Part shown: piece by piece, positions 33,101 to 63,896 of the stretch | Layout of the letters: every line of letters starts with the position of its first letter | Position numbering within the stretch: the first letter of the stretch is position 1 | The notes under the pieces: generated by a model | Database searches by the model: none | What the model was told of the DNA's origin: nothing | The model's input: the letters and a program-made list of their open reading frames with translations, nothing else | Assembly: GCA_041662585.1 (NCBI GenBank) | Contig: JBAZSG010000006.1 | Span: forward strand, 4,155 to 68,154 | Direction of reading: 5' to 3' | Length of the DNA stretch: 64,000 nt | Origin: Patescibacteria group bacterium | GTDB lineage: Bacteria; Patescibacteriota; Patescibacteriia; UBA1558; GWA2-36-10 | Made by a program: the position numbers and the translations under genes

Positions 33101-33192
33101 TAATCCCCCTAAATCCCCCTTTGACAAGGGGGACTTGTCAAACTCTATTAATTAATTCTCCCCTGTCAAGGGGAGATGGCTGAAGGACAGAG
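33101..33192. repeat. cluster of GC-rich palindromes (CCCCC-TTTGACAA-GGGGG; TTGACAAG-GGGGA-CTTGTCAA; TCTCCCC-TGTCAA-GGGGAGA)
   Basis: Read directly; conspicuous C/G runs in an AT-rich intergenic spacer between two same-strand genes. Confidence 0.6.
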
Positions 33193-62700: not shown

Positions 62701-62750
62701 ATGGGATATGGATTATTGAAAAGATTAAAATTTTTATAAACACTTGGTAG

Positions 62751-62824
62751 GGGGGAGTATTTCAGTGGTAGAATGCTGGTCTCCAAAACCAGCGACGAGG
62801 GTTCGATTCCTTCCTCCCCTGCCA
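62751..62824 (+). tRNA. tRNA-Trp (anticodon CCA)
   Basis: Hand-folded: acceptor GGGGGAG/CTCCCCT (G1-U72 wobble), anticodon arm CTGGT-CTCCAAA-ACCAG (34-36 = CCA), T-arm GAGGG-TTCGATT-CCTTC, discriminator G, CCA encoded; closely resembles canonical bacterial tRNA-Trp. Confidence 0.8.
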
Positions 62825-62827
62825 AAT

Positions 62828-62918
62828 GTTTAGAAGATAGTTTGGTCTCCATCCAGCCCCTCGCGAGGGGCTGGATCCAAAACCTCTAGCGTGGGTCCGA
62901 TTCCTACCGCCCCTGCCA
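62828..62918 (+). pseudogene. degenerate tRNA-Trp copy lacking a 5' acceptor strand, with a 26-bp perfect GC-rich palindrome (ATCCAGCCCCTCGCGAGGGGCTGGAT, 62851-62876) where the CCA anticodon should be
   Basis: D-arm-like GTTTAGAAGATAG, anticodon-stem/loop halves GGTCTCCA | palindrome | TCCAAAACCTC, variable TAGC, T-arm GTGGG-TCCGATT-CCTAC, acceptor 3' strand CGCCCCT-G-CCA; starts only 3 nt after the intact tRNA-Trp CCA. Confidence 0.45.
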
Positions 62919-62973
62919 AAAGAGCAAGATATTCAGTATCTTGTTTTTTTGATATACTAAATATATTAAAATT
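62913..62973 (+). repeat. 61-bp direct repeat, copy A (terminator-like hairpin CAAGATA-loop-TATCTTG + T7 + promoter-like GATATACTAAAtATATTAAAATT)
   Basis: 54/61 identical to 63836..63896; differences confined to the hairpin loop (TTCAGT vs GTTATT) and one T/G. Confidence 0.8.
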
Positions 62974-62980
62974 ATATATT

Positions 62981-63319
62981 ATGAAAGAAATAAATTGGAA
63001 AGATTTTGATAAGGTTGAAGTAAGAGTGGGGACTATTATAGAAGTAGAAGATTTTCCGGAAGCTAAGATACCGGCTTATAAAATAAAAGTCGATTTTGGT
63101 AATGAAATTGGGATTAAAAAATCAAGTGCTAGAATTACAAATTTATATACAAAAGAAGAATTGTTAAATAAAAAAATAATTGCTGTAGTTAATTTTCCAC
63201 CAAAACAGATTGGTCCATTTGTTTCTGAATTTCTTTGCGCTGGTTTTTATAGGAAAGATGGTACAGTGGTATTAGCAGTTCCAGATAAAGATATTCCCAA
63301 TGGCAGTAAACTTGGTTAA
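62981..63319 (+). CDS. tRNA-binding domain protein (CsaA/Trbp111-like, EMAP/Myf fold)
   Basis: 112 aa from the ATG at 62981 ('[40 protein letters not shown]...'). The track's 62891 start runs through the pseudo-tRNA and repeat and is not used. Confidence 0.6.
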
Positions 63320-63382: not shown

Positions 63383-63607
63383 TTACGGACAAATGCTATT
63401 AGCATCAGGTACCGTAAAAGATGATACTCTAATTTGACCAACTGGGAGATCTACGTTTACTCCCTGTGCTCTAAGATATGGCGTAGCATGATCTGCCGAG
63501 ACATAAATCTCTTTAGCTTTTACACCGGCTTTAATTAGAGCAGTGGTCAGATCAGCTAAGTCATGCTGATCAGCAACAATAACTAAACGTTTGACGGCCA
63601 TAGCCAT
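63383..63607 (-). CDS. small hypothetical protein encoded in a locally GC-enriched patch
   Basis: 74 aa (MAMAVKRLVIVADQHDLADLTTALIKAGVKAKEIYVSADHATPYL...); GC visibly higher than the flanks; no confident family assignment. Confidence 0.35.
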   Translation of the reverse strand: MAMAVKRLVIVADQHDLADLTTALIKAGVKAKEIYVSADHATPYLRAQGVNVDLPVGQIRVSSFTVPDANSICP

Positions 63608-63835
63608 CCTCCAATCTTAAAAACTAATCACCTTGATTGATGATTAGTTTTTTATATCTTTCTATATTTTTTAGAATTTTAAGAACGCCACAAAAAGCTA
63701 ATCACCATGGATAGCTTTGGTAGCGGTTGGTTTGTTCTTAAAATATTTCTCATAAGTCTATATATTACTACATTTTTACAAAATGTCAATTTAATAATTT
63801 TTATCAAAAAATCTTCCAACTTCGTCCCACAATCT

Positions 63836-63896
63836 CTGCCAAAAGAGCAAGATAGTTATTATCTTGTTTTTTTGATATACTAAAGATATTAAAATT
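63836..63896 (+). repeat. 61-bp direct repeat, copy B
   Basis: See copy A; located just upstream of the lipoprotein gene start. Confidence 0.8.

Follow-up and report, generated by a model that had tools for sequence, protein, structure and literature searches.

A palindrome-split tRNA-Trp remnant in a Patescibacteria genome: a probable relic of a GIY-YIG nuclease cassette

Why should an intact tRNA-Trp gene be followed immediately by a second tRNA-Trp copy that lacks its 5′ end and carries a long perfect palindrome in its anticodon arm? Such an arrangement, with an intact copy 1 and a truncated copy 2, was described in an initial annotation of a 64-kb stretch of DNA from a Patescibacteria genome (hereafter, the window). 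Both ARAGORN and Rfam agree with that description in calling tRNA-Trp at 62751–62824 alone, and inspection of copy 2 likewise shows that the acceptor 5′ strand is missing and that the T arm, the acceptor 3′ strand and CCA are present. A complete second tRNA that might have been overlooked was not found by ARAGORN outside copy 1; for 62825–62918, ARAGORN gives no tRNA and Rfam gives nothing even at E ≤ 10. The 26-bp perfect palindrome, ATCCAGCCCCTCGCGAGGGGCTGGAT, was recovered at 62851–62876. It is unique across the 64-kb window with 3 mismatches allowed, and was obtained in 0 of 100 shuffles.

Structure of the tRNA-Trp locus in the window

The palindrome consists of a 24-bp dyad-symmetric element, which we designate PAL, together with one flanking A and one flanking T (Table 1). 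The 24-bp insert (62852–62875) is bracketed by the direct repeat TCCA (62848–62851 and 62876–62879), and both repeats hold the CCA anticodon; the palindrome does not replace the anticodon, contrary to what had been proposed. The source contig (ENA k141_305749) carries the same bases throughout the locus. A second MAG, from an independent assembly (GCA_041667165.1), differs at 2 positions over 1.7 kb, both outside the tRNA-Trp/palindrome stretch. Thus, the locus is not an assembly artefact.

Table 1. Parts of the tRNA-Trp locus, in coordinates of the 64-kb window
Feature	Coordinates	Strand	Description or basis
GIY-YIG gene relic	62704..62739	+	11 final codons and stop, GYGLLKRLKFL*; translation
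Cassette-borne complete tRNA-Trp(CCA), copy 1	62751..62824	+	ARAGORN and Rfam, 63.4 bits
Cassette spacer/trailer	62825..62843	+	Common to the window and L169
GGTCTCCA, cassette-side copy of the anticodon-arm 5′ strand	62844..62851	+	Ends in the left TCCA (62848–62851)
PAL, 24-bp dyad-symmetric element TCCAGCCCCTCGCGAGGGGCTGGA	62852..62875	.	Palindrome analysis
Orphaned native tRNA-Trp 3′ half	62876..62918	+	Right TCCA, T arm, acceptor 3′ strand, CCA
Native tRNA-Trp terminator hairpin and T-run	62919..62950	+	Matches the sequence after the L009 tRNA-Trp

The codons upstream of copy 1 are recognisable as a nuclease relic: they share 7 of 8 residues with the C-terminus of homolog P0129 (HGLLKRLK) and fit the alignment of the protein family, and the nucleotide alignment between the window and the full form of lineage L169 begins at ATGGATTATT. 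The rpmG terminator adjoins this relic because a deletion took the left PAL and the native 5′ half entirely, and the nuclease gene except for its 11 final codons. At the other end of the locus, the terminator forms a strong hairpin in the RNA fold. The initial annotation expected related genomes to have secE-nusG after tRNA-Trp; neither this genome nor any relative's locus examined has this order. Downstream, another degenerate tRNA-3′-end remnant with a repeated terminator brackets variable cargo.

Comparison of the two copies with tRNA-Trp genes of other lineages revealed that (i) the 3′ half of copy 2 matches the tRNA-Trp of relatives L003 and L009 at 40 of 43 positions, but copy 1 of the window at 36 of 44 (80% identity over 45 nt when 62876–62920 is aligned with the 3′ part of copy 1); (ii) L009 has a single uninterrupted tRNA-Trp followed by a terminator identical to that of the window; (iii) the 3′ half of copy 2, when joined in silico to the 5′ half of L009, is called as tRNA-Trp by ARAGORN; and (iv) copy 1 is identical at 73 of 74 positions to the internal tRNA of the L169/L112 cassette, and differs from the relatives' native type in the acceptor, D, anticodon and T stems. 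As judged from these identities, the 3′ half of copy 2 is the resident original gene and copy 1 is a different, imported tRNA-Trp. The D-arm-like stretch at 62830–62851, which had been assigned to copy 2, has a different gene origin from that 3′ half; it is shared with the L169 cassette, and the 3′ half is of the tRNA type native to the host. The alignments show copy 2 to be a junction, with cassette sequence before PAL and a dead native 3′ half after it. The feature as a whole is what remains at the right-hand junction of an insertion that entered the anticodon loop of the resident tRNA-Trp gene and has since decayed. The orphaned 3′ half is a pseudogene, in which the T-loop TTCGATT has become TCCGATT (T55C). 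Copy 1 is the sole intact tRNA-Trp within the window and presumably the working gene.

These results separate the explanations that had been suggested from the window. The insertion of a small palindromic element is upheld as far as the target-site-like duplication is concerned; the duplicated host tRNA into which it was thought to have inserted is not, since the 3′ half of copy 2 is the original gene. The same identity contradicts a 3′ duplication of the tRNA made by an integrase, and the structure contains no integrase. The more general idea of a mobile-DNA footprint at tRNA-Trp is borne out in spirit by the cassette found in other lineages.

The complete cassette in other Patescibacteria

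The complete element was read directly in L169 and is also present in L157, L149 and L188. Its left end comprises the native 5′ half ending in GGTC-TCCA, a PAL, TCCAAAACC and a short linker; its middle comprises an 81-aa stand-alone GIY-YIG gene followed by a complete spare tRNA-Trp; and its right end comprises GGTCTCCA, a PAL, TCCA-AAACC and the native 3′ half with its terminator. In all, the insert spans about 0.45 kb. Complete elements regularly have the palindrome at both junctions, and GGTCTCCA precedes the right-hand PAL wherever a lineage retains the right end. The 41-nt GGTCTCCA-PAL-TCCAAAACC unit at both ends of the full forms constitutes direct repeats that match part of the tRNA, within which the palindrome is foreign to the tRNA. 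In-silico removal of the cassette and the PALs restored a tRNA-Trp call by ARAGORN in 4 of 4 full forms (L169, L157, L149 and L188).

The spare tRNA-Trp is often flanked by a complementary leader and trailer. This complementarity is significant in L149, L165, L188, L157 and L169 and was seen by inspection in L145 (6 lineages); as a universal feature it was rejected, as it fails in L121, L166 and the window, where it is weak (score 6, reached by 136 of 500 shuffles). Between near-identical tRNAs, the differences are biased toward the anticodon stem (5/5, 4/5 and 8/10 differences in 12 of about 75 positions). The anticodon arm of the internal tRNA is identical to that of the orphan halves in L157, L149 and L190, and in L188 the tRNA type that is internal in the window lies outside, and vice versa. 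Decayed forms are many (left-only, right-only or with a frameshifted ORF): L121 has no left end at all, L165 and L145 retain about 10 nt of the 5′ half, and L157, the only lineage in which the outer halves are perfectly intact, has a frameshifted ORF. At the gathering threshold, Rfam detected only tRNA, and no intron or ribozyme, in the window and six cassette loci; a group I intron was rejected on the same grounds, as no ribozyme core was detected in the locus or the six cassettes.

The cassette ORF belongs to the GIY-YIG family (PF01541; E = 1e-13 to 1e-15 in L169, L165 and L121). The nuclease proteins have 78–88 aa and consist of the catalytic domain alone, with no sequence-specific DNA-binding domain fused to it, and the closest solved structures are those of the stand-alone UPF0213 proteins 1zg2 and 1ywl. 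By profile search, the family includes at least 7,665 90%-identity clusters, with 1,846 50%-identity representatives, a family-wide count that covers any locus. The cassette carries a nuclease of a homing-endonuclease superfamily outside any intron or intein, of which the window retains only the 11-codon relic.

All 15 other lineages fetched have a GIY-YIG gene immediately 5′ of a full tRNA-Trp, together with PAL-bearing tRNA-Trp fragments. The labelled lineages among them are Komeilibacteria, Kerfeldbacteria, Parcubacteria, Doudnabacteria, Collierbacteria and Microgenomates, and the GIY-YIG/tRNA-Trp association persists where tRNA-Trp does not adjoin rpmG. The site is occupied in the window and in L169, and empty, with an uninterrupted tRNA-Trp, in L003, L006 and L009. 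At these empty sites the native tRNA is clean, and neither a PAL nor any cassette-type segment is present. Occupied and empty sites are interleaved among genomes with 81–91% DnaJ identity; one conserved site is polymorphic for presence or absence among close relatives. The initial annotation had allowed for an ancestral stable feature shared by related genomes. The arrangement does recur, patchily, in many Patescibacteria, but it is not a stable ancestral feature, since the tRNA-Trp of the closest relatives, whose DnaJ is 82–91% identical, is uninterrupted. The window and L169 share the cassette (tRNA at 73/74 positions, ORF tail, spacer and PAL) in two different native alleles.

Genome contigs were scanned with GGTCTCCAN{10,40}TCCAAAACC, a permissive pattern for which about 2,000 chance matches are expected; among the matches listed (at least 120), only L112 and L121 were real. 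A metagenome scan with CTGCCA added upstream, a pattern blind by design to left ends and to tRNAs with a solo PAL, gave at least 13 true loci in at least 7 distinct arrangements among the matches listed (at least 55). No full-length tRNA-Trp with a solo PAL was seen in the loci examined or among the matches listed. The viral contigs scanned contained no PAL and no true arrangement, and gave no sign of phage origin.

The PAL family has the consensus CCCAGCCnCTCGCGAGnGGCTGGG (19 copies). In this family, 96.5% of positions are complementary, a level reached by 0 of 500 shuffles, and 11 of 12 pairs show double changes; PAL folds as a DNA hairpin with z = −5.3. The symmetry includes the exact centre, where CGCG alternates with CTAG. 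As an RNA hairpin cannot require central symmetry, these changes point to a dyad at the DNA level. More than 25 PALs lie in orphan halves, at the D loop, the position-26 junction, the anticodon loop and the T loop, and none was seen in internal tRNAs. The direct repeats that flank them are 3–4 nt long, mostly TCCA and otherwise TCA, (T)ACA or TGAA.

Origin and movement of the cassette

We estimate a probability of about 0.8 that the locus is the decayed relic of a selfish GIY-YIG cassette that splits tRNA-Trp. The cassette would be a selfish element of the free-standing homing-endonuclease type. Its nuclease would cut tRNA-Trp genes that have no insert, in or close to the anticodon arm, which PAL interrupts in both orphan halves, and repair would copy the cassette from the occupied allele, whose two orphan tRNA halves would act as homology arms. 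As the target is essential (the sole tRNA-Trp in each stretch examined), the cassette would bring its own tRNA-Trp, whose diverged anticodon stem may resist cutting or reduce recombination with the orphan halves. PAL would belong to the element and may be the site that a dimeric nuclease binds or cuts, or a hairpin or cruciform that the nuclease recognises; it would also spread as a 24-bp mini-insertion with 3–4-nt target duplications at unpaired positions of the orphan halves. The window most likely holds an immobile element whose palindrome retains no function; at most, the palindrome would be transcribed as a piece of the tRNA-Trp 3′ trailer.

It is unlikely that PAL is an independent miniature palindromic repeat, similar to REP, MITE or yeast mitochondrial GC-cluster sequences and unrelated to GIY-YIG, with the cassette moving by other means. 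PAL does combine a palindrome with a short target-site duplication as such repeats do; it occupies several positions, is sometimes tandem (L188) and has a family consensus, one copy (L189, 4413–4436) lies outside a tRNA-Trp half, and a second palindrome type is present on the left side in L145 and L165. Genome-wide dispersal, however, was not observed: with 2 mismatches allowed, there is one PAL in the 64-kb window, against up to 4 within about 150 nt of an orphan half elsewhere, and the copies in the fetched loci cluster at tRNA-Trp fragments. All 15 other lineages have a PAL at the anticodon-loop TCCA, every full form has one at each junction, and the L189 copy, the sole outlier, is 20 nt from another tRNA-Trp-like remnant. 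An old tandem partial duplication of tRNA-Trp, immobile, vertically inherited and accompanied by a domesticated GIY-YIG gene, would agree with the very broad distribution at the same locus and with the many decayed forms, the frameshifted L157 ORF among them; the empty sites would then be secondary losses. Loss through repeats would leave traces, however, and the L003, L006 and L009 sites are clean. The occurrence of the same cassette in two native alleles and the swapped tRNA types of L188 also count against vertical inheritance, which we regard as quite improbable.

Site-specific integration and RNA processing are less probable still. An attL/attR footprint left at tRNA-Trp by a tyrosine or serine recombinase, whose element carries a tRNA fragment, is very improbable: a recombinase is present within the cassette in 0 of the 15 other loci, where GIY-YIG is the sole gene, the insert of about 0.45 kb joins the tRNA within the anticodon loop and has a PAL at each side, and the element brings a whole tRNA instead of the replaced part. 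Such a footprint would fit the status of tRNA-Trp as an integration hotspot and the bracketed cargo downstream in the window, as well as the 481-aa large serine recombinase that abuts the tRNA 3′ end in the closest relative (L003/L004); this recombinase, however, is part of another insertion, one that lies at the tRNA 3′ end and leaves the tRNA intact. A circle carrying the tRNA 5′ half alone was rejected as a general model, as the outer halves of full forms are matched partners; the internal tRNA of full forms is self-consistent, which also counts against integration of such a circle. In L196, the displaced 5′ half is mismatched to the retained 3′ half. The lowest probability, only a slight one, falls to an RNA-level device, in which a split or intron-containing outer tRNA-Trp is rejoined via PAL hairpins, or a tRNA-like element acts in regulation or processing. 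The PALs do lie at unpaired cloverleaf positions, like archaeal mini-introns, the leader and trailer are complementary in 6 lineages, and the L157 outer halves are intact. In most lineages, by contrast, the halves are decayed or missing (no 5′ half and T55C in the window, no left end in L121, about 10 nt in L165 and L145), extra hairpins occur in D and T loops, PAL is symmetric to its central base pairs with every copy self-complementary, and Rfam finds nothing beyond tRNA. A bulge-helix-bulge was rejected by inspection and folding, as PAL pairs with itself and the alternative 4-bp helix (TCCA/TGGA), which is absent where PAL begins with CCCC, has its bulges 3′ and not 5′. A long-range PAL1:PAL2 duplex joining the halves, in the style of Nanoarchaeum split tRNAs, was rejected because the two PALs of L149 have diverged and do not complement each other, each being still self-complementary.

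For the selfish cassette, movement by homing or by PAL-directed cutting is what we infer, and several observations fit homing poorly. Characterised homing endonucleases have a DNA-binding domain, which the 81-aa protein lacks. In L157, L149 and L190, the identity of the internal anticodon arm to that of the orphans implies that the internal tRNA is not immune to a nuclease reading this arm. Homing by break repair requires no terminal repeats, and the identical 41-nt units at both ends look more like the outcome of recombination or transposition at PAL. The overhangs made by characterised GIY-YIG enzymes are 2 nt long, which leaves the 3–4-nt duplications at PAL unexplained. A bolder proposal, possible but in our view doubtful, is that the 81-aa GIY-YIG protein and the 24-bp PAL constitute a minimal, previously unrecognised DNA-mobility system. 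A nuclease that is dimeric or reads hairpins or cruciforms would recognise PAL, cut T(N)CA at unpaired tRNA-Trp positions and move full cassettes and solo PALs alike; the system would persist by breaking the host tRNA-Trp while supplying a cut-resistant variant copy. If true, it would be a drive-and-addiction module specific to Patescibacteria and a living bacterial model of tRNA-gene splitting by mobile elements.

Significance and comparison with known systems

The odd pseudo-tRNA is explained as part of a recurrent element, present in 15 of 15 other Patescibacteria lineages inspected. An essential tRNA gene appears to have been fractured and functionally replaced by an imported allele, which suggests a route for horizontal tRNA-gene replacement in otherwise highly reduced genomes and, in bacteria, a counterpart of the origin from mobile elements that has been proposed for archaeal split tRNA genes. 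The very small nuclease has a candidate DNA site (PAL or the tRNA-Trp anticodon arm) and may find use as a compact enzyme specific for a site or a structure. In annotation, the orphan halves escape tRNA finders, and the stretch that leads into the nuclease gene, a 5′ half plus PAL, would pass as intergenic. No description of a tRNA-Trp-splitting GIY-YIG/PAL cassette was found in the searchable literature.

Archaeal split, permuted and multi-intron tRNA genes use bulge-helix-bulge introns. As in these genes, tRNA-Trp is interrupted in the anticodon loop, with short inserts in the D and T loops; unlike them, the cassette lacks a bulge-helix-bulge or signs of rejoining, its halves decay and it provides a complete spare gene. 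The att elements of phages, ICEs and islands target tRNA genes and carry the displaced part of the tRNA. The cassette resembles such integrative elements in inserting inside a tRNA gene, in keeping function through an element-borne tRNA and in leaving partial-copy footprints; it differs in its tiny size, the absence of an integrase, the whole tRNA and the palindrome-bearing junctions. Group I introns occur in tRNA genes of Patescibacteria (PMC13011429), that is to say, in the same phylum and also as anticodon-loop inserts. The cassettes, unlike these introns, contain no Rfam ribozyme, and PMC13011429 makes no mention of Trp, palindromes or GIY-YIG.

Mobile GC-rich palindrome families include REP/BIME, the Rickettsia palindromic elements and the yeast mitochondrial GC clusters. 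PAL is similarly short, GC-rich in an AT-rich genome and flanked by short duplications, and inserts into RNA genes; unlike REP and GC clusters, it is exactly 24 bp, centre-symmetric and nearly confined to tRNA-Trp fragments by the nuclease gene. Other small mobile GC-rich palindromes include the fungal mitochondrial palindromic repeats (for example, PMC7218506). In the "fractured genes" of PMC2677866, a free-standing homing endonuclease gene splits a protein-coding gene, and split inteins rescue it. There, as here, an essential gene is broken by an endonuclease-gene insert and the compensating device travels along; the rescue of the fractured genes is by protein trans-splicing of the split gene itself, whereas the cassette supplies a complete second gene copy and the broken halves decay.

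The phage T4 tRNA gene cluster contains the SegB gene. The cassette differs from the T4 Seg system in that (i) its 81-aa protein is a catalytic domain alone, and I-TevI and Seg proteins add a DNA-binding domain; (ii) it splits the anticodon loop of its target, brings a replacement tRNA and has 24-bp palindromes at its bounds; and (iii) its host is a cellular genome and not a phage. In other respects it is close to the free-standing GIY-YIG homing endonuclease genes of T4-like phages, the Seg family (cf. PMC2988022 and PMC13096335): the nuclease gene lies outside introns and beside tRNA genes, its presence varies among close relatives, and co-inheritance of the nuclease gene with flanking tRNA DNA is the expected outcome.

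Architecture of the cassette and its decay in the window

The window is AT-rich DNA of a Patescibacteria (CPR) genome; ENA contig ERZ27249449:k141_305749 is identical to it, GCA_041667165.1 is nearly identical, and the names on homologs of its DnaJ are Parcubacteria or Patescibacteria. The gene order hrcA, grpE, hsp20, dnaK, dnaJ, tRNA-Thr and rpmG leads to an intact tRNA-Trp gene (copy 1), directly followed by a 5'-truncated, palindrome-bearing tRNA-Trp (copy 2). The 94 nt after copy 1 gave no ARAGORN or Rfam call, even at E<=10. The 26-bp perfect palindrome of the initial annotation is real, being the only one in the window at 3 mismatches (0 of 100 shuffles), and the sequence 3' of it shares 80% identity with copy 1 in the latter's 3' part. 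It had been described as replacing the anticodon; close reading revealed instead a 24-bp insert, designated PAL, between direct repeats that each keep the anticodon.

Close relatives were located through DnaJ homologs (L003/L004, 91% identity; L006/L008, 87%; L009, 82%), and each has one uninterrupted tRNA-Trp straight after the rpmG terminator. Comparison with these native genes revealed that (i) copy 2 agrees with them at 40 of 43 positions, but with copy 1 at 36 of 44; (ii) the terminator behind copy 2 is that of L009; (iii) each of the four stems of copy 1 deviates from the native type; and (iv) the ~49 nt before copy 1 are absent from the relatives. Therefore, the 3' half of copy 2, orthologous to the native gene, is on sequence grounds the resident and copy 1 the newcomer. 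An intact gene followed by a truncated one is present as first annotated, but the truncated one is not a simple duplicate. The acceptor stem of the window tRNA-Trp and of the relatives' tRNA-Trp pairs G1 with U72; the usual end pair of bacterial tRNA-Trp is A1-U72. CCA is gene-encoded in most of these genes.

When genome and metagenome collections were scanned for the pattern, most matches were due to chance. Among the matches listed, the window arrangement recurred in a Komeilibacteria-labelled MAG (L112, the same as L169 and L177), a Kerfeldbacteria-labelled MAG (L121) and at least 6 more metagenome lineages, with a 24-nt palindrome (25 nt in L112) of differing sequence at exactly the same site in each. 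L169, syntenic with the window (dnaK, dnaJ, tRNA-Thr, rpmG), has the intact cassette. Its rpmG terminator is followed by the native 5' half ending GGTCTCCA, PAL, and TCCAAAACC with an 18-nt linker; then by an 81-aa ORF, a complete internal tRNA-Trp and a spacer; and finally by GGTCTCCA, PAL, TCCAAAACC and the native 3' half. The internal tRNA is identical to copy 1 at 73 of 74 positions. The 81-aa ORF encodes a GIY-YIG catalytic domain (PF01541, E = 1e-13); among solved structures, the stand-alone UPF0213 proteins 1zg2 and 1ywl come nearest to it. The full form also exists in L157, L149 and L188; deleting cassette and PALs in silico yielded an ARAGORN tRNA-Trp in all four, as did joining the orphan 3' half of the window to the L009 5' half.

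The alignment of L169 with the window starts exactly at a nuclease-gene relic (62704), and only the last 11 nuclease codons are kept; thus, the window copy is decayed. A deletion has taken the 5' half of the native gene together with the PAL on the left and the bulk of the nuclease gene. We conclude, with a probability of about 0.8, that the feature is the relic of a tRNA-Trp-splitting cassette; it is itself dead, yet exposes a widespread element.

Features of the window and of related loci
Feature	Locus	Position	Strand	Remarks
Paired 20-nt palindromes	window	33105-33176		intergenic
Paired 20-nt palindromes	L169	5050-5125		dnaK-dnaJ spacer
Nuclease-gene relic	window	62704-62739		last 11 codons, GYGLLKRLKFL and stop; 7/8 identity with C-terminus of homolog P0129
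Copy 1, tRNA-Trp(CCA)	window	62751-62824		ARAGORN and Rfam
Acceptor strands of copy 1	window	62751-62757 / 62815-62821
Perfect palindrome	window	62851-62876		26 bp
PAL insert	window	62852-62875		24 bp; TCCA direct repeat on both flanks
Direct repeat, 72 nt	window	62902-62973, 63825-63896		88% identical; tRNA 3' end, terminator hairpin, AT-rich stretch
CsaA-like tRNA-binding-domain ORF	window	62981-63319		PF01588
74-aa ORF	window	63383-63607	minus	no family
Remnant 3	window	63814-63841
Remnant 3	L006	8103-8130
Remnant 3	L169	2469-2486	minus
Remnant 3	L189	4460-4487
Serine recombinase gene, 481 aa	L003	7516-8961	minus	large type; overlaps last 15 nt of intact tRNA-Trp
Serine recombinase gene, 481 aa	L004	2448-3893		as in L003
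GIY-YIG ORF	L157	547-792		in-frame TGA and frameshift near 5' end
Reduced native tRNA, second palindrome type	L145	183-225		left of nuclease gene
Reduced native tRNA, second palindrome type	L165	1230-1185	minus	left of nuclease gene
Two consecutive tRNA-Trp 5' fragments	L186	2251-2460		before nuclease gene
Tandem PAL units	L172	1-150		contig begins within PAL

The palindrome family and the internal tRNA

Nineteen 24-nt PAL copies have the consensus CCCAGCCnCTCGCGAGnGGCTGGG, with 96.5% of positions complementary and both-sided changes in 11 of the 12 pairs; no shuffle or slid register comes near this complementarity. The symmetry reaches the two central pairs (e.g., CGCG to CTAG in both L149 PALs), and because such central bases could not pair in an RNA hairpin, PAL is read not as an RNA signal but as a putative dyad at the DNA level or a hairpin of single-stranded DNA. 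The two L149 PALs have diverged from each other and are each still self-complementary, which speaks against long-range PAL–PAL pairing. Every PAL has a 3–4-nt direct repeat on its flanks, namely TCCA at the anticodon, TCA or TGAA in the D loop and (T)ACA at the position-26 junction; L188 carries two PALs in tandem with TCCA after each. The orphan 3' halves of L169, L145 and L166 have similar hairpins in their T loops, and all of these sites are unpaired cloverleaf positions. No PAL lies within the internal tRNAs of the loci inspected. Elsewhere PAL is rare: the 64-kb window has a single copy, and L189 has one outlier, beside another tRNA-like remnant. A further family, made up of the paired 20-nt palindromes TCCCCCTTTGACAAGGGGGA and TCTCCCCTGTCAAGGGGAGA with AATCCCCCTAAA close by, is intergenic in both the window and L169, at different loci.

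The spacer that follows the internal tRNA can pair over ~10–17 nt with the leader 4–6 nt 5' of this tRNA, by inspection in L145 and by computation in L149, L165, L188, L157 and L169; the window, L121 and L166 do not show this complementarity. Such a pairing could represent a processing stem or an inverted repeat of the DNA. Differences between near-identical tRNA-Trp pairs concentrate in the anticodon stem, 12 of about 75 positions (5/5 for L188 internal versus L006 native, 4/5 for the window versus L149 internal, 8/10 for L196 versus L195 internal). As indirect evidence, this fits possible selection on the cassette tRNA, either to escape an anticodon-arm-reading nuclease or to keep it from recombining often with the orphan halves.

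Recurrence and patchy presence in Patescibacteria

Homologs of the 81-aa protein fall into at least 7,665 clusters (profile search, E<=1e-8) and 1,846 50%-identity representatives (all-against-all search, E<=1e-3); among the profile matches listed, the organism in the source name, where given, is Patescibacteria or an unclassified "bacterium". In 15 of 15 lineages (L186/L187, L188, L189, L190, L191-L194 (Collierbacteria), L195 (Doudnabacteria), L196/L197, L198 (Microgenomates), L166, L121, L145, L149, L157, L165 and L169), the nuclease gene lies directly 5' of a complete tRNA-Trp, and tRNA-Trp fragments with PAL in the anticodon loop lie beside it, also where rpmG does not adjoin tRNA-Trp (L191, L196, L198).

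L169, L157, L149 and L188 are full; L186, L189, L190, L191, L196 and L198 are left-only, with PAL-bearing 5' fragment(s), nuclease gene, full tRNA and native terminator; L195 is akin to these, plus a degenerate PAL-less 3' fragment at the right; L121, L166 and the window are right-only. Grouped with the last, L145 and L165 keep ~10 nt of the 5' end, the native tRNA being reduced to GGGGGCGTCG before a different 20-nt palindrome, CCTGCCTGCCGG(C/T)AGGCAGG, a second type at the same element. Although the nuclease ORF of L157 is broken, the two PALs at this locus are still identical, as are all of its tRNA parts; this could reflect very recent inactivation, sequencing error or recoding. Such a mix of intact and eroded copies is the trace that invasion and then decay of a selfish element would leave. 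Of the two 5' fragments in L186, one is cut at the anticodon and has no PAL; in the second, PALs interrupt position 26 and the anticodon loop. This suggests repeated events at a single locus. L172 shows two units in tandem, each consisting of PAL, TCCAAAACC, 3' half and CCA, with a spacer of 26 nt between them; truncated copies with PAL can thus form arrays.

Among close relatives, occupied sites are interspersed with empty ones; the window is nearer to L003 (91%), which is empty, than to L169 (85%), which is occupied. Were the empty sites products of loss through the repeats, they would carry PAL or cassette-type traces; they are clean native genes with neither. The window and L169 share the cassette from ORF tail through tRNA, spacer and PAL to TCCAAAACC, beyond which each has its own lineage's native allele (L009-type and L006-type, respectively). 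L188 is the reverse of the window, with an L006-type internal tRNA in a split outer gene of GGGGGAG type. Together, these sequence patterns favour repeated insertion into different resident alleles.

Other insertions share this target. The 72-nt repeats enclose a 923-bp segment with the CsaA-like and the 74-aa ORF, and resemble the footprint of a second, separate insertion at the tRNA-Trp 3' end. Remnant 3, TTCCAACTTCGTCCCACAATCTCTGCCA, resembles the T-loop and acceptor 3' end of tRNA-Trp in degenerate form; several relatives have a single copy of it 3' of tRNA-Trp, always with a tRNA-Trp-type terminator next, and the intervening cargo varies (tRNA-binding protein in the window, response regulator in L169, pilin-like gene in L189, about 240 nt of non-coding DNA in L006). 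The serine recombinase of L003/L004, the closest relative, belongs to a different integrated element at the same tRNA; past its gene lie >4 kb of ORFs without recorded Pfam match.

Mechanism and known systems

The sequences directly establish how the cassette is built, that it recurs, that close relatives have it patchily, that the 3' half of copy 2 is orthologous to the native gene and that the window copy has decayed; how it spreads is inferred. The GIY-YIG protein may drive the spread by putative cutting of uninterrupted tRNA-Trp genes, after which repair would copy the cassette, the tRNA halves serving as homology arms; with a spare tRNA on board, breaking an essential gene would be survivable, and PAL would be an element-owned, putative nuclease-related DNA site. 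We hold this homing mechanism tentatively, at somewhat less than even odds. Against its simple form, the 81-aa protein has no DNA-binding domain, the internal tRNA is indistinguishable from the target in three lineages, and the cassette carries an identical 41-nt unit at both ends, which suggests recombination or transposition at PAL. Known GIY-YIG cut geometry does not match a 3–4-nt duplication. The initial annotation had favoured site-specific integration at tRNA-Trp, and the defining trait of an integrase element was not found here; nor was that of a group I intron (Rfam) or of a bulge-helix-bulge intron (inspection).

The arrangement is undescribed in the literature searched, including a recent survey of Patescibacteria tRNA introns. 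SegB is a free-standing GIY-YIG homing endonuclease gene in the T4 tRNA cluster. The cassette agrees with such free-standing genes in nuclease family and site polymorphism, and differs from them in lacking the DNA-binding domain, so that it belongs with them only in part. Besides these genes, tRNA-targeting integrative elements and small mobile GC palindromes are among the closest known systems, as are "fractured genes", which are split by endonuclease genes (PMC2677866).
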